From: Thermodesulfobacteriota bacterium
GTDB taxonomy: Bacteria; Desulfobacterota_D; UBA1144; Nemesobacterales; UBA2774
Direction: 5' to 3'
DNA: 64,000 bases
NCBI GenBank assembly: GCA_965216785.1
Contig: OZ244197.1
Location: forward strand, 25,120-89,119
In this document: positions 48,067 through 64,000 of the stretch, in pieces
How the letters are laid out: each line of letters starts with the position of its first letter
How positions within the stretch are numbered: the first letter of the stretch is position 1
Program-made: the position numbers and the translations under genes
Notes under the pieces: generated by a model
What the model was told of the DNA's origin: nothing
What the model saw: only the letters and a program-made list of their open reading frames with translations
Databases searched by the model: none

Positions 48067-48258
48067 TGATAAGATTTTACAGTGACTTATGAATCTATTT
48101 CAAGTTTTGGAGCAGGGAAGTCTTAATCTATTGCTATGAAAAGATACACGAGTAGCTGTGTAATATTGCACAACTCTTGAGCTTTGGAGTCTCCTTTGTG
48201 CAAACACTGATTATCTAAGCTGCTGTGATTACAACAAATATTGAAATTTCATATAAGT

Positions 48259-48274
48259 GGCATATATATTGCAA
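48259..48274 (+). promoter_or_regulatory. Sigma-54 (-24/-12) promoter motif TGGCAT-N5-TTGCA
   Basis: gTGGCATatataTTGCAaat has correct GG-N10-GC spacing. It is intergenic, ~115 nt upstream of and co-oriented with the sigma-factor gene. Confidence 0.55.
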
Positions 48275-48387
48275 ATTTTAAGATAAAAACCGGATTAGGT
48301 AGGATGGCGGAGGATATTTACAGACTTAATAATTGTCCGCTCGGGGTTTATTCACACCAATTTATATCTAAATAAAGGAGAGTGACA

Positions 48388-49530
48388 ATGAAATATCAAG
48401 AAGCTCAGACAGCTCAGAACGAAAGCCCTTCCTTTAGTGATACATATGATAAATCCGCGGACAGTGTGGGCAATGAGAGGGAGCAGTTCTTCAATGTCCA
48501 AAATAGCGAAAGCGATTCGATAAAAGAAAACCACTCTGTACTGCGCCCACAGGAAAATAGAGCCCATACGGACGACCAATTCAGAATAATGAACGATTAC
48601 TTTAGTGATATAGCCAATGAACCCTTACTTACCCTGAGAGAAGAAATAGAGCTTCCGACAAAGATTAAAAAATGCGAATCTAAAGCAAAACAGATAGAGT
48701 CGTGGCTCGAATCAGAGGAGCAAAGCAAACAAAATGAGAGGGGCTGTCAATGCTTAATAAAAAACACTCAGAGATTACAAGCCTCACATAGAGCGTACAC
48801 AGAAAGATCCAAACAGCTTAAGAAGAGATTTGCTAACGCTAACCTGAGGCTGGTCATAAGTATAGCGAAGCGATACGTGAATCATGGCCTTCCTTTTCTA
48901 GACCTCATACAGGAAGGAAATATAGGGCTTATGAGGGCTATAGACCGATTTGATCATACAAAGGGATACAGATTCTCGACCTATGCTTCCTGGTGGATAT
49001 ACCAGTCTATTACAAGGGCGATATTGGTGCATAGAGGAGCAGTTAGGGTCCCCGTATACCTGCTTGAGGTAACGAACAGAGTCTACAGAACGAGATCAAT
49101 CCTACTTAAAGAAACCGGAAAGAACCCCACTTCTGAAGAGATAGCGGAGCAGTCCGGTGTGCCGATTAAGTATGTTAAGCGAATACTTAAAATTACAAAT
49201 GAATCAGTTAGCCTGGACTCGCCTATTGACGGTGAAAAGAGAACGCTCTACGATTTCATAGAGAACAGCGATTCGATTTCCCCTGACTATATTATCGTTG
49301 AGGATGAGCTCAAAAAAAGCATACGTCATTCCCTGTCGCTACTGAGCCCTAAAGAAGAAGAGGTACTTAGAATGCGGTTCGGAATAGACAGGAAAGATAC
49401 CGTGACACTGGATGACATAGGCAAAAAATTTCAACTTACGCGAGAACGAATCAGGCAGATTGAGAAAAAGGCTCTAAGGAAACTATCTGTTTGCAAGATG
49501 AGGGAAGCTCTTAAAAACTTCCGCACATAG
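48388..49530 (+). CDS. RNA polymerase sigma factor, sigma-70 family (group 2/RpoS-like size)
   Basis: Region 2 motifs [19 protein letters not shown] and [11 protein letters not shown], plus region 4 [30 protein letters not shown]. Start set at the ATG 7 nt after AAGGAGAG; the track uses an upstream GTG. Confidence 0.85.
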
Positions 49531-52361: not shown

Positions 52362-53318
52362 CTATTTCTTATTTACCTGTAGAAACCCGATATTTTGGTG
52401 CTTATCAAAAGACATAATGATATTATCAATATCATATTTGGGAATATCGCTCGTACAATCTAACAATTCAAACTGATCACGACCAATGAGTTCCCAATCC
52501 ATAAAGCTTTCCATATAACCTATTTCTCTCATTTCTGGTAGAACATTTGTAATTAATAGCACACCTTGCGGCGATAGTTTCTGAAATAGTTTGTGAGTAA
52601 GCTTTTGTGCTGTTCTTTGTTTCAAATAATCATATAACCCTGAAGCATAAATTAAGTCATATCCTGAATGCTTGAAATTGTTTCTCAAAATATCGACAAC
52701 AGAGACAGCACTAGCCTGGACACTACTACCAGAGTAATTTCTGTTCACGTAGTTAACACTTTCTATGTCCTGGTCTATTGCAGTGTATTCTTCTATTTCA
52801 TCATTTCTAAAAGATTCAGATAGTTCAATCTCTCTTAGATGACCGCACCCTATCGACAGAACTTTTGTCTTATCGGTAGCACGGGCAACGCTGTCTATGA
52901 CTCTAGCAATATATTGCCTCCGAAGGCGTACGGAATCACATGCAGTCGTATTGAAAGTGTATTCTCGGATTTCGTTACCGAGTTCGTTAACACCATCAAA
53001 ATTCACACTTGGATGTCCATATATCATATCCAATAGGTATGCATCTCCAGCATATCCCCTGGGCTTATTGTAAGCCCTCTCTGTTATAGGGTCTTGATAT
53101 ATAAATTCTTTTATAGGATGGTCCATTAGATAATTCCCTACGATATATTTCCACTCACCTACAGAGCAATTTAGCTTTAGATGTCTTAACCCGGCGTAAA
53201 AATTATCTAGCGCCTCAGTAATTTTACTATTATTTATTTGATTGTATGCTTCCTCTAGTAGACAAGACGTAAAGTCATCACTATATATTTTCCGGGCTAA
53301 ATTATTTTGTGTCATCAT
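52362..53318 (-). CDS. Class I SAM-dependent methyltransferase with ~130-aa N-terminal extension
   Basis: Motif I VLSIGCGHLRE, acidic DQD, and post-I LIYASGLYDYL. Confidence 0.6.
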   Translation of the reverse strand: MMTQNNLARKIYSDDFTSCLLEEAYNQINNSKITEALDNFYAGLRHLKLNCSVGEWKYIVGNYLMDHPIKEFIYQDPITERAYNKPRGYAGDAYLLDMIYGHPSVNFDGVNELGNEIREYTFNTTACDSVRLRRQYIARVIDSVARATDKTKVLSIGCGHLREIELSESFRNDEIEEYTAIDQDIESVNYVNRNYSGSSVQASAVSVVDILRNNFKHSGYDLIYASGLYDYLKQRTAQKLTHKLFQKLSPQGVLLITNVLPEMREIGYMESFMDWELIGRDQFELLDCTSDIPKYDIDNIIMSFDKHQNIGFLQVNKK

Positions 53319-53350: not shown

Positions 53351-53533
53351 TTATGAGATTTCAATATTTCCAACTACATCCTTTAACTGTGATCCGTCCT
53401 CATGGGTGTATAAAATGTAAAGGGATACTTCTTTCACCCTCTCCTCTTCGGACTCTTCTGAACTTGCGGCATTAGCCGTCTTCTCCAGAAATGCTTTCAC
53501 AACTGCTAAATCTGATTGCTCTATTATCATCAT
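53351..53533 (-). CDS. Small acidic hypothetical protein (first gene of the sigma-54-driven leftward unit)
   Basis: AGGAGG lies 8 nt before the ATGATG at 53533. The track ORF begins 21 nt earlier at 53554. A sigma-54 motif lies just upstream. The methyltransferase gene starts 33 nt downstream. Confidence 0.45.
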   Translation of the reverse strand: MMIIEQSDLAVVKAFLEKTANAASSEESEEERVKEVSLYILYTHEDGSQLKDVVGNIEIS

Positions 53534-53570
53534 GACTAAGACCTCCTTTTTCATTATGTGACTTTATAAA

Positions 53571-53586
53571 TGCAACCGGTATGCCA
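53571..53586 (-). promoter_or_regulatory. Sigma-54 promoter motif TGGCAT-N5-TTGCA (reads leftward)
   Basis: The reverse complement of aaTGCAAccggtATGCCAaat is atTTGGCATaccggTTGCAtt. Confidence 0.55.
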
Positions 53587-53639: not shown

Positions 53640-53656
53640 TGTAAACTACGTTTACA
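53640..53656. promoter_or_regulatory. Perfect inverted repeat TGTAAAC-tac-GTTTACA between divergent sigma-54 promoters (candidate enhancer/UAS)
   Basis: 7-bp arms. A further GTAAAC half-site lies 20 nt downstream (53661-53666). Confidence 0.45.
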
Positions 53657-53730
53657 TATCGTAAACTCCGTATACATATCAGTGATTCACACACACTAAC
53701 TTATTTAATGATTAAAGAGGCTTACGTTTT

Positions 53731-53746
53731 TGGCATTCTGATTGCT
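53731..53746 (+). promoter_or_regulatory. Sigma-54 promoter motif TGGCAT-N5-TTGCT (reads rightward)
   Basis: ttTGGCATtctgaTTGCTc. Predicted TSS ~25 nt before the AAGGAGG RBS of the collagen-like gene. Confidence 0.55.
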
Positions 53747-53781: not shown

Positions 53782-54576
53782 ATGAGGATATTGATATTTC
53801 TGAGTGTTTTATTTAGCGGTTTATACTTTTCACAGGATGTAACTGCCGAGGGTATAGTATTCTGCCAGAGTAAAATCTTTAAAGTCGTAAGATACAGGGG
53901 CGGCGAGCCCGGAAGCTGTAAACGATTTGAAAATGAGATTGTTATAACTACCGAAATCGGTGAGGCTGGACCTCCCGGGCCTCAGGGACTAGCTGGACCT
54001 GCAGGACCTCAAGGTGATCCTGGACCGGATGGACCAGCCGGACCTGAGGGGCCACAAGGACCGGCAGGACCTATGGGAGATGTCGGACCGGAGGGCCCAC
54101 CAGGTGATATAGACCAAGGTCTTTTGGATGATCTTCAGGAACAAATTGATATTCTAGCAAGTAAGGCATGTGGAGATGGAGAATTAGATATAATTTTTGG
54201 TGAAGAGTGTGATGATGGAAACGAATTAGACCAAGACAGTTGTTCATCTGATTGCTTAATCACAGGCCCAAGTGGTCCTTTTTGCGGTAATAGAACAATT
54301 GAAGATCCTGAAGTATGTGATGCCGATATAATTCTGACTAGTTGTATAGACTTGGGATTTGTAACAGGAGACCTAAGATGTTCGGACGACTGCCTATCTT
54401 TTGATACATCAGGTTGTCTTGACTCAGTATGCGGCAATAACAACCAGGAAAGTGGTGAAGTTTGTGATGGAACAGATTTGGTTGGTATAGATTGTACTGA
54501 CTTTGGATTCACAGGAGGTTCCTTAGCATGCGGTTTTGACTGTGTTAGTTTTAATACATCTAATTGTTCTAATTGA
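53782..54576 (+). CDS. Secreted collagen-like (G-X-Y) / Myxococcus-type cysteine-rich repeat protein
   Basis: Signal peptide. About 17 uninterrupted GXY triplets ([50 protein letters not shown]). Four cysteine-rich repeats of the CG[DN]G..E.GE.CDDGN / C.D.GF..G.L.C..DC.SF.TS.C type. Confidence 0.75.
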
Positions 54577-54664: not shown

Positions 54665-57600
54665 TTGAAAGGAGTATGTTCTTTGGAGTGTTCAGCTTGT
54701 AAATCTGCAATCACATCAGGTGAAAAATTCTGCGGCAATTGCGGAAAGAAAGTAGGGGTTGAGTGTCAGAGCTGCGGCAATGAAAATCCCCTTAAGAACA
54801 AGTTCTGCTCAGAATGCGGCAGCAAACTGAGTAACGGAACTGTATCTAAACCTGAGAGCTTCTCAAAAGATATTCCTGTACAGCTTGCCAGAAAGGTGAT
54901 AGAAGAAAAAGCACATCTTGAAGGCGAGCGTAAACAGATAACGGTCCTATTTGCGGACATATCAAATTTTACAGCATTATCCGAGAAGCTCGATCCGGAG
55001 GACGTAAAGAACCTAGTGGACGGATGCGCCAAGCTTATCATTCAGGATATTTACCACTATGAGGGTACGGTAGACAAATTTACAGGCGATGGTGTTATAG
55101 CCCTATTCGGCGCTCCAATTTCACTAGAAGATCATGCAGCCCGTGCATTGAGCTCAGCGATTAAAATCCAGGAATCTGTGAAGGAATACAGCCGTAAAAT
55201 AAAGAGCGAATTTGGGTATGAATTAGAAATGAGGATCGGGATAAATACAGGGCTCGTTGTGGTGGGGAGTATAGGGAACGACCTTAGCATGGATTATACG
55301 GCTATGGGCGATACGATTAACCTCACTTCGAGACTCGAATCGTTTGCTGAACCCGGCACAATTCTGGTCAGCGAAAATACTCAAAGGTTAGTGAGTGACA
55401 GATTCAGTTTCGGTCCGGGCGAAGAATACCGAGTAAAAGGAAAAAAATCGGCCGTAACAGCTTACAAGGTATTAGATACGAAAGAGGATGTAACGCTTCG
55501 CGACTTTCAGACTGAAGGTAGACTGACCAGATTCGTCGGGAGAAAAAGAGAGATAAATACCCTCACTGATAGAATCGACCTGGCAAAGGAAAGCCAGGGG
55601 CAGATTATCTCCGTTATAGGGGAGGCTGGACTTGGGAAAACCCGCCTTATCCATGAGCTTAGAGACTTATTAGGAAATGAAGACCTTAGATGGGTAGAAG
55701 GCAAGAGCCTGTCTTATGGCAAGTCGATACCATATTTCCCTATCATTAACCTGCTGAAAAGTTTTTTTAGGATCGAGTCTGATTATAGCGAGCGGGTAAC
55801 TAAAAATAAAATCGAGAAGGAAATCAGAGAGATTGACTCAGATTTATTGTGGACTCTTCCATTCTTATACAGCCTGTTATCAATCGGCCCCTCCGATAAG
55901 AGTATTGAGCAAATGCACGAACGGGAGATAAGGAGGAAGAGCTACGAGGCTGTTAATTCCATCTTCCAGAGACAGAGCAGAAAGCAGCCGCTACTTTTAG
56001 TAGTCGAAAACCTCCACTGGGTGGACAGCGCTTCAGAGGAGCTTATAAATCACATTGTGCACAATATCGCCAGAAGCAGAATTATAATACTGGTCTCAAC
56101 CCGTCCGGGACATTTACATCTGTTTTCCGATAAATCCTACTATACTCAGATAATTCTAAGCCCCCTTTCAGACGCCGATTGCGAATCTATGATCAAGCAG
56201 ATCCTGAAAACTCAAGACGTGTCGCGGGACTTACAGGATTTAATTTTGAACAAATGCGAAGGAAACCCATTGTATCTGGAAGAGGTCGTTAAGGATCTAT
56301 TAGAGCAGGGCGCTATAAAGGTATCCATGGGAAAAAGCTCTCTCAGTAAAAAGGGCCATGAACTGGCAGTCCCGGGGACGATACTTAGTATTATAATGAG
56401 CCGGGTGGACAGATTAGATGAGAACCTTAAAAATACGCTCCAGTGCGCCTCCGTGATAGGGAGAGAGTTTTCGTTCCCTCTACTGAACGGCATTACAGGC
56501 GGCGGCATAGAATTACATGAAGACCTTGAAAAACTGAAAGAACTTGAGCTGATATACGACAAAGGACCCTCACCTGAGCCTGAATACTTGTTTAAGCACG
56601 CGCTCACTCAGGAAGCCACCTACAACAGCCTTCTCTTCGGTAGAAGAAAAGACCTTCACCTATCAATCGGGAAGCTACTCGAGAACACACATAAAAACAG
56701 GCTCGAAGAATATTATGAGACCCTGGCTTACCACTTCTATCACGGTGAAGACGTAGAGAAGTCTTTAGAATATATGACTCTAGCTGGAGACAAGGCTTTC
56801 AGGCTCCACTCTACTAGAGAGGCCATGGAGTTCTACCAAAAAGCTATTGAGCTCATTATTAAGCAGCCTGAAACCGAGGAAAATAAATCAAAAAGAGCAA
56901 ACCTTACCATAAAGCTGACAAGGGTGCTCAGATTTTTCGAATCCCCTAAAAATATACTAGAAATGCTCAAAAGCATTGAGGATATTGCTGATACACTCGA
57001 AGACTATAATCTAAGGTCCAGAATAATGTCTCTGATCGGTTTATTTACTGTGCTATTGGCTAAGAATCAGGAAGCCGGAATCCCCTATTGTGAGAAGAGT
57101 ATCGAGATCGCGAGCACTTTGAAAGATGAAAAAATCACATCACTGGCGTTCTATAGCCTCACAATGGCCTACTATTTTACAAGAGGAAAAAACGAAGGAG
57201 CCGACCTTTTCAAAAAAGCTTACAAAATTTCAAATAATGCCGGAGATTATTTTGAGGCGAGTCATATTCTGCTGCTCCATGGTATTTCACTTTGGCATTG
57301 GGGAGACTATGAGAAAGCCCAACAATACATAAAGAATTCTCGGGACTACGCTGAAAAAAGAAAAGCTCCTACAATGGCTGCACACAGTTATTGCGCACAT
57401 GGGGGTTACGGGGTGTTTTATGGAAACTTCACACAAAACTACGTCGACGACTGTAAAAAAGCGATGCAAATGTTTAAAGAATTAGACGACGTGTACTACT
57501 ATCTTATAGTTTCAGGCTGTTACTGGTACGGAGTTTACAAAACGACAGGGAATAAAGAAGCGGTTAAAAATCTCGAGGAGACAATAAAGAAAAAAGAAGA

Positions 57601-58036
57601 AAATGATATGTGGATATGGCAGCCGATGCTTTATTCATATTTAGCTGAAGCATACTGTGATTTAGGTATTGAAAGGGAAGCGCTCGCATCATGTAAAAAA
57701 TCGATAGAAATAGCAGAGGGAGCCGGGAACAAATTAGAAGCAGGCAGAGGCAGGATCGCCTTAGGAAAATATTATATAGATAAACAAAATCGAGACTTGA
57801 AAAAGGCGGAAGTGAGTTTTAAAGAAAGTGTTGAAAACTTTGATGTTATTGAAGCAAATTCGGGCCTTTGTATGAGTTATTTCAATCTCGGTGCACTTTA
57901 TAAAGAACAGAAAAACTATAAAGAAGCAAAAGCTTATCTTTCTAAAACTATACCGATGGCTAAAAAAGCGGGGTTATGGTGGTATTTACGGAGCTCAGAA
58001 CTCCTCTTAAACGATATAAAGGAAAGCACATCATAA
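54665..58036 (+). CDS. Double zinc-ribbon + class III adenylate/guanylate cyclase + STAND (AAA_16) NTPase + TPR signal-transduction protein
   Basis: N-terminal CxxC x4. Cyclase core ITVLFADISNFT...FTGDGVIALFGAP. P-loop VIGEAGLGKTRL, Walker B LLLVVENLHWVD and the GNPLYLEE motif, then multiple TPR-like helices. The start may instead be the TTG at 54683 (SD AAGGAG 8 nt upstream). Confidence 0.8.
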   Translation: MKGVCSLECSACKSAITSGEKFCGNCGKKVGVECQSCGNENPLKNKFCSECGSKLSNGTVSKPESFSKDIPVQLARKVIEEKAHLEGERKQITVLFADISNFTALSEKLDPEDVKNLVDGCAKLIIQDIYHYEGTVDKFTGDGVIALFGAPISLEDHAARALSSAIKIQESVKEYSRKIKSEFGYELEMRIGINTGLVVVGSIGNDLSMDYTAMGDTINLTSRLESFAEPGTILVSENTQRLVSDRFSFGPGEEYRVKGKKSAVTAYKVLDTKEDVTLRDFQTEGRLTRFVGRKREINTLTDRIDLAKESQGQIISVIGEAGLGKTRLIHELRDLLGNEDLRWVEGKSLSYGKSIPYFPIINLLKSFFRIESDYSERVTKNKIEKEIREIDSDLLWTLPFLYSLLSIGPSDKSIEQMHEREIRRKSYEAVNSIFQRQSRKQPLLLVVENLHWVDSASEELINHIVHNIARSRIIILVSTRPGHLHLFSDKSYYTQIILSPLSDADCESMIKQILKTQDVSRDLQDLILNKCEGNPLYLEEVVKDLLEQGAIKVSMGKSSLSKKGHELAVPGTILSIIMSRVDRLDENLKNTLQCASVIGREFSFPLLNGITGGGIELHEDLEKLKELELIYDKGPSPEPEYLFKHALTQEATYNSLLFGRRKDLHLSIGKLLENTHKNRLEEYYETLAYHFYHGEDVEKSLEYMTLAGDKAFRLHSTREAMEFYQKAIELIIKQPETEENKSKRANLTIKLTRVLRFFESPKNILEMLKSIEDIADTLEDYNLRSRIMSLIGLFTVLLAKNQEAGIPYCEKSIEIASTLKDEKITSLAFYSLTMAYYFTRGKNEGADLFKKAYKISNNAGDYFEASHILLLHGISLWHWGDYEKAQQYIKNSRDYAEKRKAPTMAAHSYCAHGGYGVFYGNFTQNYVDDCKKAMQMFKELDDVYYYLIVSGCYWYGVYKTTGNKEAVKNLEETIKKKEENDMWIWQPMLYSYLAEAYCDLGIEREALASCKKSIEIAEGAGNKLEAGRGRIALGKYYIDKQNRDLKKAEVSFKESVENFDVIEANSGLCMSYFNLGALYKEQKNYKEAKAYLSKTIPMAKKAGLWWYLRSSELLLNDIKESTS

Positions 58037-58867: not shown

Positions 58868-58886
58868 CTGTAAACATCCATTACAG
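58868..58886. promoter_or_regulatory. Inverted repeat CTGTAAAC-N5-TTACAG (shares the TGTAAAC half-site with 53640-53656)
   Basis: ~150 nt upstream of the sigma-54 motif at 59036. Confidence 0.35.
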
Positions 58887-59035
58887 TTAAAATAACTATT
58901 TTCTGTTGTTAAGTTCCTTAAATCTCCCAAATTTTAAGTATATATTCAAATTCCAAGATTCACCCTCCTGGCAATCTCTGTAAGCAGGGTTGACACTTCT
59001 GTCAAATTATTCAATGTTTTCAGATGTTTAGAATT

Positions 59036-59051
59036 TGGCACACTGCTTGCA
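59036..59051 (+). promoter_or_regulatory. Sigma-54 promoter, perfect consensus TGGCAC-N5-TTGCA
   Basis: tTGGCACactgcTTGCAaaa. The GGAGG RBS and the ATG of the YdhR-like gene follow within 55 nt. Confidence 0.65.
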
Positions 59052-59088
59052 AAAATATTAAATCAAAAATCACTTGGAGGTGATCGAT

Positions 59089-59430
59089 ATGATAGTAGTT
59101 CAGATTATTAACTTTAACTTAAGCGGTATGAGTGAGACGGAGTATGAGCAGACCTGTGATAATTTAGCCGGCTCATTCGCTGAGGTTCCAGGACTTCTGG
59201 CCAAATACTGGCTATCTGACCGGGCCAATAACAGTTACGGCGGGGTGTATTTATGGGAAGACCGTACGTCGCTTGAGCGTTTTACCCGCTCAGAGCTTTT
59301 TAATAGTGTTGCCACTCATCCCAATCTGGTAAACATCTCTTCACAGGTATTCGATGTGCTGGAGGGCCCTACCCGAGTTACAAGGGGCTTTGACGCTGTA
59401 AGCGCAATTGAAAAAGCCCGTGCGGTTTAA
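59089..59430 (+). CDS. YdhR-like putative monooxygenase (Dabb/ABM fold)
   Basis: VVQIINFNLSGMSETEYEQ...GLLAKYWLSD..NNSYGGVYLWEDRTSLERF..S.LF resembles YdhR (PF08803). Based on recall only. Confidence 0.5.
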   Translation: MIVVQIINFNLSGMSETEYEQTCDNLAGSFAEVPGLLAKYWLSDRANNSYGGVYLWEDRTSLERFTRSELFNSVATHPNLVNISSQVFDVLEGPTRVTRGFDAVSAIEKARAV

Positions 59431-59457: not shown

Positions 59458-59733
59458 ATGAAATTTATAGCGGTCCATCCACTAAATAGTCCTATAAGAG
59501 AGGACCAGATTACCGACGCAGCCAGAGCGTGCAGGGCGGAGAACAGTAACAACGCCTGCTGGATAGACAGCTGGACCCAGCTTAACGACGAAGGAGAGAT
59601 CACAGTTATCTATTGTCAGTACGACGCAAAGGACGCAGAATCCGTAGCAGATCTTCTTAAAAAGGGAGCACCAGACCTTCCGGTCGAGGGTATATACCTT
59701 ATGGGTAAGCTCGAAGCAGAAAATTACAGGTAA
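59458..59733 (+). CDS. DUF4242 (SCO4226-like, putative nickel-binding) protein, copy 1
   Basis: MKFIAVHPLN...CWIDSW..DEGEITVIYCQYDAKDAESV...EGIYLM. Confidence 0.6.
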   Translation: MKFIAVHPLNSPIREDQITDAARACRAENSNNACWIDSWTQLNDEGEITVIYCQYDAKDAESVADLLKKGAPDLPVEGIYLMGKLEAENYR

Positions 59734-59796: not shown

Positions 59797-59826
59797 TTGA
59801 ATTAAGAAAATCTAAAGTGATATAAT
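59797..59826 (+). promoter_or_regulatory. Sigma-70-like promoter TTGAAT-N18-TATAAT
   Basis: About 19 nt before the GGGGAGG RBS of the EBP-STAND gene. Confidence 0.45.
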
Positions 59827-59844: not shown

Positions 59845-62505
59845 ATGCAGCGTTCCGCGGTAGAAAAAAATAAGATCATCGGCTCAAGCGCAAAGCTTTC
59901 TGAGGTCGTGGACTTAATTTTGAAAATCGCCGATACACCGACCAACATACTTATCACTGGTGAAAGCGGCACAGGAAAGGAGCTTGCCGCAAGTCTACTG
60001 CATGAAAAGAGCAGCCGCTCAGATAAACCTTTTATGGACATCAATTGTGCGGCTATACCCGAGACGCTTCTGGAGAGTGAGCTCTTCGGTATTGAAAAAG
60101 GGGTCGCGACGGGGGTTGAGAGAAGAGAGGGTAAAATCGAGCTATCCGCAGGGGGGAGCCTTTTCCTTGACGAAATAGGCGACATGAGCCTCGGCGCTCA
60201 GGCAAAGCTGCTCAGGGTCCTTCAGGAAAGGAGCCTTAAAAGAGTAGGCGGCAAAAGCGACATCGCCGTTGACCTGAGGATAATCGCAGCCACGAACAAA
60301 GACCTTCTTTCGGAGATAAAAAAGGGGAAATTCAGAGAGGATCTTTATTACAGGATCAACGAAGTACATATTAAGATGCCTTCCCTGAGGGAAATACGTG
60401 AGGATATACCCAGTTTGTCCGAGCATTTTCTTCATTCACTCTGTCATGAGCTCAATATGAATACACTCCGGTTTAGTGATTCAGTCCTGGACCGACTATC
60501 GAGCTACAGCTGGCCCGGAAACATCAGAGAGCTTAAAAACGAGGTTAAAAGGGCAGCGCTCCTGGCCGATGGCCATATAATAGAAGAAAGAGATTTATCT
60601 CCAGATATTTTGAATTTCTTTAAAAACAAGGATGCCAGTCAAGGTCTTGTAAGTGAAGCAACTTCGCTACCTCGAGCAGTAGAAGAGCTCGAAATCCAGA
60701 TGATAAAGCAAGCCCTAAAATCATGTCAGGGAAACAGGGTAAAGGCCTCTCAGATGCTTGGAATATCAAGGCAGGGACTAATAAAAAAGATAAGCAGATA
60801 CAGGATAGATCAGGGTAGCTCTCAGAAAAAGAAAATTTCAGACCGATTGCTCAAGTCAAGCAAAAGATCGTTTGTCGGAAGAGCAAATGAGATTAAAGAA
60901 ATAAAGGATCTAATCAAGTCCAAGAAGTCTACTTACTATGTCTTATTTATTCACGGCATAGGAGGGATTGGGAAGACAAGTATGGTTAAGGAACTTTTAA
61001 ATTCCTTGGACGCTAAGGTTAGTACAATTTACCTTGATTGTAGAGACATAGAGCCGACGGAGAACGGTTTTCTAACATCGCTGGGTAATGAACTTAATCT
61101 CAAGAGCACCAGAATTACAGTAGAGCGTGTTTTAAAGAGTTTGGAGAAGAGAAAGGAAAGAACACTACTGGTACTCGACACCTATGAGACTTTCGGACTT
61201 ATGGATACCTGGCTCAGAAAGACTTTTATACCATCTCTACCTGAGAATTTTCTTACAATAATCATCGGAAGACACCCGCCAAATAATTCATGGTTTACAA
61301 GCTCAGGCCTTGGGACTCTTATTAAGAGTATTGAGCTTGAGGAGCTTTCTTATGAGGACGCGATCAACTTCTTAATACTCCGTGGGCTTACGTCAGAAGA
61401 AGCAGAAAAGACCTATTCATTCGCCCGGGGGCACCCGATGGCTCTTGAGCTAGCAGCAAATTCGGTATCATCAAAACCCACTCGAGACATTTCATACAAA
61501 TCATTCCCTAACATTATTCATCAGCTGACGCAGGATTTCCTGCTGGGTCTAGATAAGAAGACCAGAAAGACGCTCGAGAGCCTCTCTTTAGTGAGGCGCT
61601 ATGACGACACCCTACTGAAACACTTACTAAACGAAGACTACGAAGAAGGTATCTTTGACAATCTCTTAGAGCTCCCATTCGTCAGCCTAACAGGAGAAGG
61701 ATGCTTGATACACGATATAGTAAGGGAAACTATAGCTCGTGAGCTATCACTCCGTGATCCGAAGAGGTATAAGGATTCGAAAAAAGCCGCATGGGTATAT
61801 CTGAATGAACAATCGCTTGCGAAGCACGGTGAATCACTCTGGCAAGCTACTGCCGATTTGCTATACACTATAGAAAACCCGGTTGTAAGGGATGCTTTCT
61901 TTCCTAAAGGTGCAATGGGTTATGTCGTCGAGCCACTATCTCATGAGGATAAAGAGCATGTAATTGATATTGTGCGTGAGTCCGAATCGGGTGAACCTGC
62001 CGATATAATTGAGAACTGGCTCACATATTATCCGGGCAGTTTCAGTGTTGTTAAAGATATAACCGGTGAAGTTGAGGCGTTCTTTATTTTATGCGAGCCT
62101 AATGAGATCGATAGGAGCCCTTTATCTGAGGATAAAATACTCGACGTTTGGTTTAAGCACTTGGAATCTAATCCTCTAGATTCCACAGACAAAGCGCTAT
62201 TTCTAAGGAGGTGGCTCAGTAGAGGACATGGTGAAGGTCTTTGTCCTGCACAAGGAGCTTCATGGCTCGACGTTAAGAGAAACTACATGGAGCTTAGACC
62301 TAAATTAAAAAGGCTTTATACAACACTGACTGATTTAGAAAACTATAAGCCTGTCGTATTACCGTTAGGTTTTTCTCTTTTAGATAGTTCAGAGATTGAG
62401 CTCGAAGAAACAACTTACTATTCCGCCATTATTGATTTCGGACCGGACAGCGTCGACGGATGGCTCAGAAAACTTATCGGTCTTGAGCTTGGTATTGGTC
62501 AGTAA
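59845..62505 (+). CDS. Fusion: sigma-54 enhancer-binding AAA+ core + Fis-type HTH + NB-ARC/STAND NTPase + C-terminal domain of unknown function
   Basis: aa 10-245 are an EBP AAA+ core (GESGTGKE, ESELFGIEKG-GVATGV, GGSLFLDEIGDMS, SWPGNIRELKN). HTH at ~aa 285-315. P-loop FVGRANEIKEI...IHGIGGIGKTSM, Walker B LLVLDTYE and GHPMAL at aa 330-560. It has no N-terminal receiver, GAF or PAS domain. Confidence 0.8.
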   Translation: MQRSAVEKNKIIGSSAKLSEVVDLILKIADTPTNILITGESGTGKELAASLLHEKSSRSDKPFMDINCAAIPETLLESELFGIEKGVATGVERREGKIELSAGGSLFLDEIGDMSLGAQAKLLRVLQERSLKRVGGKSDIAVDLRIIAATNKDLLSEIKKGKFREDLYYRINEVHIKMPSLREIREDIPSLSEHFLHSLCHELNMNTLRFSDSVLDRLSSYSWPGNIRELKNEVKRAALLADGHIIEERDLSPDILNFFKNKDASQGLVSEATSLPRAVEELEIQMIKQALKSCQGNRVKASQMLGISRQGLIKKISRYRIDQGSSQKKKISDRLLKSSKRSFVGRANEIKEIKDLIKSKKSTYYVLFIHGIGGIGKTSMVKELLNSLDAKVSTIYLDCRDIEPTENGFLTSLGNELNLKSTRITVERVLKSLEKRKERTLLVLDTYETFGLMDTWLRKTFIPSLPENFLTIIIGRHPPNNSWFTSSGLGTLIKSIELEELSYEDAINFLILRGLTSEEAEKTYSFARGHPMALELAANSVSSKPTRDISYKSFPNIIHQLTQDFLLGLDKKTRKTLESLSLVRRYDDTLLKHLLNEDYEEGIFDNLLELPFVSLTGEGCLIHDIVRETIARELSLRDPKRYKDSKKAAWVYLNEQSLAKHGESLWQATADLLYTIENPVVRDAFFPKGAMGYVVEPLSHEDKEHVIDIVRESESGEPADIIENWLTYYPGSFSVVKDITGEVEAFFILCEPNEIDRSPLSEDKILDVWFKHLESNPLDSTDKALFLRRWLSRGHGEGLCPAQGASWLDVKRNYMELRPKLKRLYTTLTDLENYKPVVLPLGFSLLDSSEIELEETTYYSAIIDFGPDSVDGWLRKLIGLELGIGQ

Positions 62506-62587: not shown

Positions 62588-62869
62588 CTACCTGTAATCT
62601 TCACCATATACCTCGGCTATCTGAAAGATACCATCAGATGGCGGCAGCTCTGGTACGGATGATGAGAGGGTCGCGTGAATGGAATTAACATCTTTACTGT
62701 CCCACTCACAAAAAACTCTCGACACTTTTCCGTCATCAGTCAACTGAAGCCAGCTCCTGACCCAGTAAGCATCAGTGCTGAGGTTGGCCTTGCACTTTTG
62801 TGCAATCGGCACAACGTCCTCGCCGTTTACTGGTGGGTTAACCGGGTGAATAGCTATATATCTAGGCAT
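62588..62869 (-). CDS. DUF4242 (SCO4226-like) protein, copy 2
   Basis: MPRYIAIHPVN...YWVRSW..DDGKVSRVFCEWDSKDVNSI...DGIFQIAEV. Paralogous to 59458-59733. Confidence 0.6.
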   Translation of the reverse strand: MPRYIAIHPVNPPVNGEDVVPIAQKCKANLSTDAYWVRSWLQLTDDGKVSRVFCEWDSKDVNSIHATLSSSVPELPPSDGIFQIAEVYGEDYR

Positions 62870-62911
62870 ATACTTATACCTCCTATTAGGATTTAATAAT
62901 TTAGATTTCGA

Positions 62912-63967
62912 TCAATACCGAGACATAATATTCTCATGAAAACTATTCATAGCTTTTATAGGATCAGGCACAGGGGCTATCATTATCTGATTTATACCCT
63001 GTGACTCCATCCTTTTAATCGTGTCGATGATCTCGCTGCTGGTTCCAACGAGAACTGATGCTTCTATCATCTCCGGCGTGAGCACATCGTTAAATTCCTC
63101 GTTCCAGAAAAAATAGTTACTGTAGTAGGCAAGGTGTCTTCTTTCGGGGTTGTCCAGGTCTGAAGGATACGCGTTTGTGAATTTCATGACCCCGTCCCTT
63201 AAGCTCTCAGGAAGCGGCTCGCCCGGAGTTGTACCTGTGTTTTTCCCGTGGTTTTCAAGTGACTTCGCGAGTATATTCAGACATACAGAGACCATAGGTC
63301 CCAGCTGATGTCTGACTGATTCAGTTTCAAGAGATTCGCCTTCATCCAGAATATAAAAAGCGCTAAGAACCATGGTATATATGTCCTCAGGGTTTCTTCC
63401 TGATTTCTTCGCGCCCTTTCTGATTCGCTCCATACAATAATCTATGTACTCCTCGTCTATCGCCCCAAGAAGCATTACACCGTCCGCAAGCTCTCCGGCA
63501 AGCTCAAGAGTCTTTGGTCCGCTTCCGGCCATAAATATTGGTATTTCGTCTTTGGTATTTATAAAGCCCATATCTGGACTCAGGAATTTAACAGGTCTCT
63601 TCCTCTCCTGAGATAAATACTTATCCGGGCCTTCACTGTATTCCGCCTCTTCACCCTTGAGCATTTTTCTATATATGCCAACGTCATTCCGAAGCTCATC
63701 AAGCTTAGCTATCGGCATACCCCAGGCCCGTCTCGCGGTGTTACCGGTACCGATCCCGAGAACACACCTGCCGGGCGCAAGCTCGTTTAGAGTAGCCATG
63801 GCTCTTGCGGTAACTGGAGTCATCCTGGCGCGCGGGCATGTGACGCCAGGGCCAAGCTTTATTTTTTTTGTATTGGTGGCGCAAAGGGTTAACGTTTCAA
63901 AAACATCGCTCCCTATGCTGTCATACGGCATAAAATGTGTGAACCCCTTATCTTCGCCATGGGCCAC
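62912..63967 (-). CDS. Luciferase-like monooxygenase (LLM-class flavin/F420-dependent oxidoreductase)
   Basis: TIM-barrel LLM family with an LGIGTGN loop. 351 aa. Confidence 0.75.
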   Translation of the reverse strand: MAHGEDKGFTHFMPYDSIGSDVFETLTLCATNTKKIKLGPGVTCPRARMTPVTARAMATLNELAPGRCVLGIGTGNTARRAWGMPIAKLDELRNDVGIYRKMLKGEEAEYSEGPDKYLSQERKRPVKFLSPDMGFINTKDEIPIFMAGSGPKTLELAGELADGVMLLGAIDEEYIDYCMERIRKGAKKSGRNPEDIYTMVLSAFYILDEGESLETESVRHQLGPMVSVCLNILAKSLENHGKNTGTTPGEPLPESLRDGVMKFTNAYPSDLDNPERRHLAYYSNYFFWNEEFNDVLTPEMIEASVLVGTSSEIIDTIKRMESQGINQIMIAPVPDPIKAMNSFHENIMSRY

Positions 63968-64000
63968 CCATTGCCATGAATGTATATGTGAGGGAAAATG

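Follow-up and report, generated by a model that had tools for sequence, protein, structure and literature searches.

Introduction

Canonical enhancer-binding proteins (EBPs) such as ZraR, NifA, NtrC1 and PspF (PF00158, AAA+ clade 6) share Walker A and B motifs, sensors, arginine fingers, an L2 insertion and an HTH_8 domain, their sensory module lies N-terminal to the DNA-binding domain, and their L1 loop has the form H/Y-x-x-G-A-F-T-G-A. Within GAFTGA, sigma-54 binding is lost when a bulky residue replaces any one of A84 to A88, and variants of G83 keep partial binding and lose open-complex formation (PMC3467059). In TyrR, DhaR, HupR, VpsR and R. capsulatus NtrC an EBP-type AAA+ domain lacks the GAFTGA phenylalanine or the whole motif (PMC3162934); the loops of these proteins are deleted or idiosyncratic and their targets have sigma-70 promoters. 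Another departure, GVATGV, was found by Kazakov et al. (2015) in DVUA0100 of D. vulgaris, where they argued from regulon reconstruction that it is no bar to activation of sigma-54 promoters, in that case those of type III secretion operons (PMC4641369). Here we describe another architecture with this loop, an 886-residue protein encoded on a 64,000-nucleotide stretch of contig OZ244197.1 (positions 25,120 to 89,119 of the forward strand; assembly GCA_965216785.1, Thermodesulfobacteriota bacterium), which we call the window. The protein carries GVATGV in an N-terminal EBP AAA+ domain that is followed by a DNA-binding domain, a STAND NTPase and a GNAT-fold domain, and we refer to it as the EBP-STAND-GNAT protein.

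DVUA0100 (DVU_RS16390, Nitratidesulfovibrio vulgaris Hildenborough), in which we confirmed FGIERGVATGV on the sequence of plasmid pDV1, resembles the EBP-STAND-GNAT protein in its motif, its shortened loop and its EBP AAA+ domain, and both sigma-54 promoters and binding sites have been predicted in its operon (PMC4641369). The two differ in that DVUA0100 has 575 residues, a long N-terminal region of unassigned function and neither a STAND nor a GNAT domain at the C-terminus, and its type III secretion regulon has another binding motif; its activity is likewise only predicted.

From comparative evidence we consider it quite probable that GVATGV in the EBP-STAND-GNAT protein is a functional L1 loop free of aromatic residues, and that the protein turns on a sigma-54 promoter at position 59036 from TGTAA-N7-TTACA palindromes under the control of its STAND-GNAT module. 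A first-pass annotation of the window had regarded the loop as a degenerate GAFTGA, and proposed either that the protein binds nearby palindromes without activating sigma-54 or that it engages sigma-54 in a non-canonical way.

The L1 loop and the AAA+ domain

The codons GGG GTC GCG ACG GGG GTT at 60100-60117 give G-V-A-T-G-V, residues 86-91 of the EBP-STAND-GNAT protein. Alignments made with phmmer to ZraR (1ojl), NifA (9qq6), NtrC4 (4l4u) and NtrC1 (1ny6) are free of gaps from ESELFG through the motif (ESELFGIEKGVATG in the EBP-STAND-GNAT protein, ESELFGHEKGAFTG in the solved EBPs), and Ala88 therefore lies opposite the GAFTGA phenylalanine in every one of them, with the threonine and glycine that follow being identical. 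The codons and the ungapped alignments to ZraR, NifA and NtrC1 confirm what the first-pass annotation had read at this place, a motif in the position of GAFTGA with alanine for phenylalanine. The sole ambiguity of register comes from a one-residue deletion immediately after the motif, such that the final valine pairs either with the last GAFTGA alanine or with the residue beyond it. In no register, and in no alignment to EBPs, is an aromatic residue restored at the loop tip, so that the check proposed in that annotation, an alignment against known EBPs, leaves the substitution standing.

Where canonical EBPs have GAFTGA with phenylalanine or tyrosine at its third position, the EBP-STAND-GNAT protein has FGIEKGVATGV, a match to the pattern F-G-[IV]-E-x-G-[VTAI]-A-T-G-V, and its loop reads I-x-x-G-V-A-T-G-V with one residue fewer. 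The arm that follows is shortened, with 11 residues instead of the usual 12 separating the motif from GGSLFLDE (GGTLFLDE in canonical EBPs), and the residues that set it apart are I83, V87, A88 and V91 together with the deletion after V91.

The AAA+ domain is otherwise that of a typical EBP. The Pfam model Sigma54_activat (PF00158) matches residues 11-176 with 225.3 bits against a cut-off of 20.2, AAA_lid_14 also matches within the N-terminal third, the phmmer comparison with ZraR gives E = 4e-79, and identity to the AAA+ domains of canonical EBPs is 45-50%. All of the ATPase motifs are intact and aligned (GESGTGKE, LFLDE, sensor I AATN, FREDLYYR and GNIREL; Table 1). An AlphaFold2 model built from the orthologue alignment has a mean predicted local distance difference test score (pLDDT) of 74.7, and its AAA+ domain resembles ZraR, LuxO and FlrC with template modelling scores of ~0.9.

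Table 1. Positions of the gene, its motifs and domains, and the associated promoters, palindromes and target genes in the window.
Feature	Position	Strand	Basis or remark
EBP-STAND-GNAT gene	59845..62505	+	886-aa open reading frame, frame intact over 886 codons
Walker A GESGTGKE	59959..59982	+	EBP type, acidic residue after Lys; aligned with canonical EBPs
L1 loop signature FGIEKGVATGV	60085..60117	+	alignment; GVATGV at 60100-60117
Walker B LFLDE	60160..60174	+	alignment to EBPs
Arginine-finger region FREDLYYR	60331..60354	+	alignment to EBPs
Sensor II GNIREL	60517-60534	+	motif position in the open reading frame
Fis-type HTH_8 DNA-binding domain, residues 279-319	60679..60801	+	PF02954, 47 bits, cut-off 22
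STAND-type NTPase and helical arm, residues 343 to ~685	60871..61899	+	AAA_16, 50 bits, cut-off 32.6
STAND P-loop GIGGIGKT	60955-60978	+	motif position
STAND Walker B LVLDT	61168-61182	+	motif position
C-terminal GNAT-fold domain, probable ligand-binding/sensor module	61900..62502	+	
Sigma-54 -24/-12 promoter TGGCACactgcTTGCA	59036..59051	+	38 bp upstream of ydhR-like start codon; exact TGGCAC-N5-TTGC at 59036-59050
Distal upstream activating palindrome, predicted, TGTAAacatccaTTACA	58869..58885	.	perfect TGTAA-N7-TTACA
Proximal upstream activating palindrome, predicted, TGTAAgcagggtTGACA	58979..58995	.	1 mismatch
Predicted target gene 1, YdhR/ABM-type small monooxygenase-like	59089..59430	+	Pfam ydhR, 72.7 bits
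Predicted target gene 2, SCO4226-like small protein	59458..59733	+	PF14026, 30.4 bits
Sigma-70-like promoter TTGAAT-18-TATAAT, TG-extended	59797..59826	+	directly upstream of EBP start; consensus match only
Third perfect palindrome TGTAAactacgtTTACA with degenerate tandem copy	53640..53677	.	between two divergent sigma-54-like promoters
Sigma-54-like promoter TGGCATtctgaTTGC	53731..53745	+	36 bp upstream of collagen-repeat gene 53782
Sigma-54-like promoter TGGCATaccggTTGC	53572..53586	-	faces 67-aa open reading frame 53351-53554 (-) and methyltransferase gene 52362-53318 (-)

Conservation and distribution of GVATGV

Sixteen orthologues aligned at 47-83% identity all have the motif unchanged, and so, to the letter, do 116 of the 120 closest homologues in the database; only two of the 120 have GAFTGA. 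The loop is therefore neither a chance sequence nor a private change. Among the 116 are some 17 orthologues of full length, numerous proteins of ~515 residues with the order GAF-AAA+-HTH, and cyclase-STAND-TPR fusions of 1431-1543 residues. Recent private decay or an error of sequencing or assembly in this genome, for which the departure from GAFTGA is the one thing that speaks, can be set aside as negligible: it is refuted by hundreds of homologues and by independent assemblies that have the identical motif, and by a frame that is intact over all 886 codons. The description of the loop as degenerate does not hold either, as GVATGV is a strictly conserved signature within a domain whose ATPase motifs are intact.

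HMMER, run without filters on 1.84 billion representatives (50% clustering), returned 77,673 EBP-like proteins at E <= 1e-30, and x[VTAI]ATGV is present in about half of the best 150 of these, the variants being GVATGV (46), GTATGV (8), K/R/S/N-VATGV, GAATGV and others. Many of the top-scoring representatives, P0121-P0133 among them, have two or three tandem EBP AAA+ domains per polypeptide, with loops that are mostly of the GAFTGA type. Scanning one-genome-per-species contigs with the back-translated pattern F-G-x-E-x-G-V-A-T-G-V yielded at least 119 loci, and all 119 of those listed encode EBP AAA+ domains followed by Walker B (117 with DE, two with DD). The matches listed include Acidobacteriota (Thermoanaerobaculia, Terriglobia, Holophagae), Myxococcota, Nitrospirota (Nitrospira), Pseudomonadota, Desulfobacterota/Thermodesulfobacteriota (Mailhella, Desulfobulbus, Geobacteraceae), Silvanigrellaceae, Bacteroidota, Ignavibacteria and Cytophagia. 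Phyla that contain these loci generally carry sigma-54.

We compared 70 AAA+ domains with the ATGV loop and 35 with FTGA in PspF numbering; in the PspF sequence used for this the landmarks K42, N64, F85 and E108 fall as expected. The strongly discriminating columns are confined to L1, where H/Y/F80 is I or V in 99% of the ATGV sequences, A84 is V in 90%, and 100% have A for F85, V for A88 and no residue 89; less sharply, position S135 in L2 tends to be basic (78%). As judged from this alignment, the hairpin has been replaced in a coordinated fashion rather than eroded, because the L1 changes are fixed and the sequence is canonical at Walker A and B, at both sensors and at the arginine fingers. 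GVATGV is thus most likely the working L1 loop of a distinct, widespread and little-studied EBP subfamily, here termed the ATGV clade, in which the aromatic GAFTGA hairpin would have been swapped as a unit for a shorter aliphatic one. A neighbour-joining tree with L1 masked separates the two groups only in part, 63 of the 71 ATGV sequences sharing a bipartition with nine canonical ones, so that a single origin of the clade, at which the cassette of L1 changes hints, is no more than plausible.

Sigma-54 promoters beside the EBP gene

The promoter at 59036 is the window's only exact match to TGGCAC-N5-TTGC, and is followed by the ydhR-like gene, the SCO4226-like gene and then the EBP gene. The ydhR-like ATG at 59089 is preceded by GGAGG, and the mechanically called open reading frame begins at a TTG at 59074. 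The centre of the proximal palindrome lies ~50 bp upstream of the -24 GG, and the distal palindrome is kept in position and sequence in three orthologous loci (L120, L121 and L125). These putative enhancers are of the TGT-N11-ACA form upstream of a -24/-12 promoter, as for NifA and FhlA, so that a DNA-binding domain, upstream palindromes and a -24/-12 element at the neighbouring target, all expected of an EBP, are present together.

The same layout recurs in relatives. In all eight orthologous loci compared (the window, L120, L121/L122, L123, L125, L126, L127 and L128) the EBP gene has beside it a -24/-12 motif and one or two TGTAA-N7/8-TTACA palindromes, although in L126 the -12 element is the variant TTGA. 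A ydhR-like gene adjoins the EBP gene in six of the eight, the adjacent gene of L125 being that of an alpha/beta hydrolase, and the SCO4226-like gene is syntenic in L120, L121 and L122. L123 and L125-L128 have the promoter on the downstream side of the EBP gene, so gene order differs but the arrangement stays. An alignment of four upstream regions shows TTGGCAY-N5-TTGC as an invariant block amid diverged AT-rich DNA.

Across the 119 listed clade loci TGGCAC-N5-TTGC occurs 18 times, where dinucleotide shuffles lead one to expect 1.4. Up to 800 bp from the EBP gene the density of strict -24/-12 matches is about 10 times that of the more distant flanks (15 versus 5, p = 1.4e-6), and with a relaxed score there is a nearby site in 41 of the 119 loci (p = 1e-11). 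As is expected of EBP targets, the sites are usually on the strand of the EBP gene and 20-300 bp past it, or upstream in divergent orientation. In a Holophagae/Thermoanaerobaculia subgroup (L014, L033, L053, L057, L075, L077 and L096) a -24/-12 motif is found 80-185 bp downstream of the GVATGV EBP gene, and in the four loci of the subgroup with a readable following gene (L033, L053, L077 and L096) this gene encodes an RsbW/SpoIIAB-like anti-sigma kinase of 137-141 residues.

A number of points weigh against a functional loop acting on sigma-54. According to Zhang (2009), as cited in PMC2941729, the phenylalanine of PspF is replaceable by tyrosine only, which bears out for that protein what the first-pass annotation had said of EBPs generally, and it is because of this mutagenesis that Francke et al. 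(2011) used the heading "inactivated EBPs by small changes, not probable" (PMC3162934) for seven GVATGV proteins, those of three D. vulgaris strains and of D. magneticus, Geobacter lovleyi, Lawsonia intracellularis and Solibacter usitatus. A full-text search for the motif returned genome surveys only, and brought up no GVATGV EBP that had been tested biochemically or genetically. In the AlphaFold2 model the L1 loop (residues 84-92) has pLDDT < 50, and the model therefore gave no structural inference on it. A recognisable -24/-12 site lies nearby in only about one third of the sampled clade loci, many such loci ending at the edge of a contig or block, and an EBP that lies beside sigma-54 promoters need not be the one that activates them. 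Lastly, no open reading frame with an RpoN box is present in the 64-kb window, and the presence of sigma-54 in the genome is assumed.

The mutagenesis and the classification by Francke et al. would be accommodated, as would the lack of an aromatic residue at the L1 tip, by a protein that has kept DNA binding and ATPase activity and works independently of sigma-54, as an activator or repressor of the sigma-70 type, in the manner of TyrR, DhaR, HupR, R. capsulatus NtrC and VpsR, or as a mere occupant of the palindromes; altered-loop EBP-like proteins that work without sigma-54 are known (PMC3162934). We regard this as unlikely, and with it the suggestion in the first-pass annotation of palindrome binding without activation, because the sigma-70-dependent relatives have deleted or unconserved loops whereas GVATGV is invariant across phyla, and because -24/-12 motifs accompany the gene in every orthologous locus and in significant excess among the clade loci. 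Such a regulator should have sigma-70 targets lacking a -24/-12 element, but here a conserved -24/-12 motif precedes the adjacent target, and no sigma-70-like promoter was found ahead of the ydhR-like gene, where the sigma-54 motif is the only one. The equivalog models of NCBIfam likewise place the protein far from TyrR (240 bits against a cut-off of 576) and DhaR (215 against 551).

The association with sigma-54 promoters and the mutational data on the phenylalanine could also be reconciled if the protein were not self-sufficient at such promoters, either forming mixed rings with a GAFTGA EBP in the manner of HrpR/HrpS or acting as a negative regulator that blocks the enhancer or poisons rings until a signal arrives. 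Obligate EBP pairs are known (PMC3105312), and genomes with GVATGV EBPs hold many canonical ones, D. vulgaris having 36 EBPs besides DVUA0100 (PMC4641369). This, too, seems improbable to us: no canonical EBP is encoded within the window, the only EBP neighbouring the gene at orthologous loci (a GAF-type protein in L121) itself has GVATGV and lies by other promoters that lack the TGTAA palindrome, and strict conservation of the loop sequence suits direct contact better than a passive subunit. The preferred reading thus remains a directly acting sigma-54 activator, and of the two proposals in the first-pass annotation the evidence favours non-canonical engagement of sigma-54, while the productive contact of GVATGV with it is a deduction from comparative genomics.

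Sensory domains and neighbouring genes

From N- to C-terminus the EBP-STAND-GNAT protein consists of the EBP AAA+ domain, the AAA lid, HTH_8, a STAND P-loop NTPase with a helical arm, and a GNAT-fold domain. The STAND assignment follows from an AAA_16-type P-loop with Walker A and B motifs and the helical arm behind it; the NACHT, NB-ARC and nSTAND models of Pfam match this region only below their cut-offs. The C-terminal domain has the GNAT fold and no Pfam match, and a loop SRGHGEG after its strand 4 is, judged by eye, at the expected site of the pyrophosphate-binding motif. Because both follow HTH_8, the probable sensor, the STAND-GNAT module, sits C-terminal to the DNA-binding domain, which is unusual among EBPs. 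MalT, AfsR/SARP-STAND and LuxR-STAND proteins also combine a STAND P-loop NTPase and helical arm with a DNA-binding output and a C-terminal sensor, but they lack the N-terminal EBP AAA+ ring with HTH_8 as output, and their sensors are TPR or WD repeats instead of a GNAT fold.

The product of a neighbouring gene, 54665-58036 (+), has 1123 residues and contains a zinc ribbon, a class III cyclase domain, an AAA_16 STAND domain and TPRs. Fused behind a GVATGV EBP-HTH module, this architecture is found again in relatives 1431-1543 residues long (P0042, P0043, P0048, P0050, P0053 and P0057), and STAND sensors therefore recur C-terminal to the DNA-binding domain in the clade.

The sigma-70-like match of its own at the EBP gene suggests that the regulator is expressed independently of the sigma-54 target operon. 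Near 53.6 kb a third palindrome lies between divergent sigma-54-like promoters (Table 1), which are probably activated by the EBP-STAND-GNAT protein as well; downstream of the collagen-repeat gene at 53782 are the cyclase-STAND-TPR gene and an SDR gene, and the gene order around these promoters recurs in L121. A further sigma-54-like motif, TGGCATatataTTGC at 48258-48272 (+), is 110 bp upstream of a gene for a sigma-70-family sigma factor (48382-49530). The window gave no rRNA, tRNA or Rfam match.

In L121, the closest orthologous locus, a second GVATGV EBP of the GAF type (P0058) follows the luciferase-like monooxygenase gene (L121 10254-12216; window 62588-63967 (-)). P0058 is flanked by two sigma-54 motifs without a TGTAA palindrome, and the end of the window, at 64000, falls just short of the position where its counterpart would be expected.

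Redox genes appear in more distant orthologous loci. In L123 (4194-7946) the ydhR-like target is followed by genes for a 1-Cys peroxiredoxin, a thioredoxin-reductase-like flavoprotein and a metallo-beta-lactamase-rhodanese protein, and in L127 (3347-5424) by one for a Pyr_redox_2 flavoprotein, which hints that the regulon may concern redox or sulfur stress. The GAF-type EBP PexR of M. xanthus, experimentally shown to depend on sigma-54 (PMC12754779), was considered as a member of the clade and rejected; M. xanthus is missing from the altered-loop list of Francke et al., no peroxiredoxin or catalase gene lies beside the sampled clade loci except in L123, and PexR is presumably canonical. PrdR, the best NCBIfam match, was likewise rejected, the supplement to the Clostridiales regulon paper containing no ATGV motif. 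A tblastn search against plasmids gave mostly rhizobial NifA matches.

Discussion

The organization of the locus suggests how such a regulator would operate. The protein would be expressed from its own sigma-70-like promoter and would bind the TGTAA-N7-TTACA palindromes through HTH_8, after which the C-terminal STAND NTPase and GNAT-fold domain would read a signal and allow the N-terminal AAA+ ring to assemble. Hydrolysis of ATP, with the GVATGV loops, would then remodel the sigma-54 holoenzyme at TGGCAC-N5-TTGC (59036) and so switch on the ydhR-like gene and its SCO4226-like neighbour; the divergent promoters near 53.6 kb are probably further targets. Palindrome binding by HTH_8 and signal sensing by the STAND-GNAT module are what we infer, whereas the layout of promoter and palindromes is itself conserved.

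The motif variant is already recorded in two genome surveys that reached opposite conclusions, the one of 2011 that such proteins are probably inactive and the one of 2015 that DVUA0100 is active. What appears to be undescribed is how widely the clade is spread, its cassette of five changes, its statistical association with sigma-54 promoters, and the EBP-STAND-GNAT architecture. On this comparison the protein studied here would be re-annotated as a probable activator of sigma-54 that has an unusual sensor, STAND-GNAT, at its C-terminus and controls the small ydhR-like and SCO4226-like genes.

We advance more tentatively, as a proposition that falls somewhat short of being probable, that a wide clade of EBPs activates sigma-54 with a Val-Ala-Thr-Gly-Val tip free of aromatic residues, on a shorter hairpin with an aliphatic base in place of His/Tyr and often with a basic L2. 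If this is true, the essentiality of the GAFTGA phenylalanine would be context-dependent, the clade would grip sigma-54 region I, and perhaps the -12 DNA, by a geometry unlike that of PspF and NtrC1, and the five changes (I80, V84, A85, V88 and deletion of 89) should transplant as a unit, offering a clean swap comparison.

The GAFTGA phenylalanine has been treated as the defining and essential contact with sigma-54, surveys filter on it, and one of them dropped the GVATGV proteins. On comparative evidence the ATGV clade challenges this textbook rule. Were the clade active, such filters would undercount the sigma-54 regulons of Acidobacteriota, Desulfobacterota and their relatives, and its loop would represent a second natural way to grip sigma-54 region I, one that could be compared with the cryo-electron microscopy models of PspF and NtrC1.

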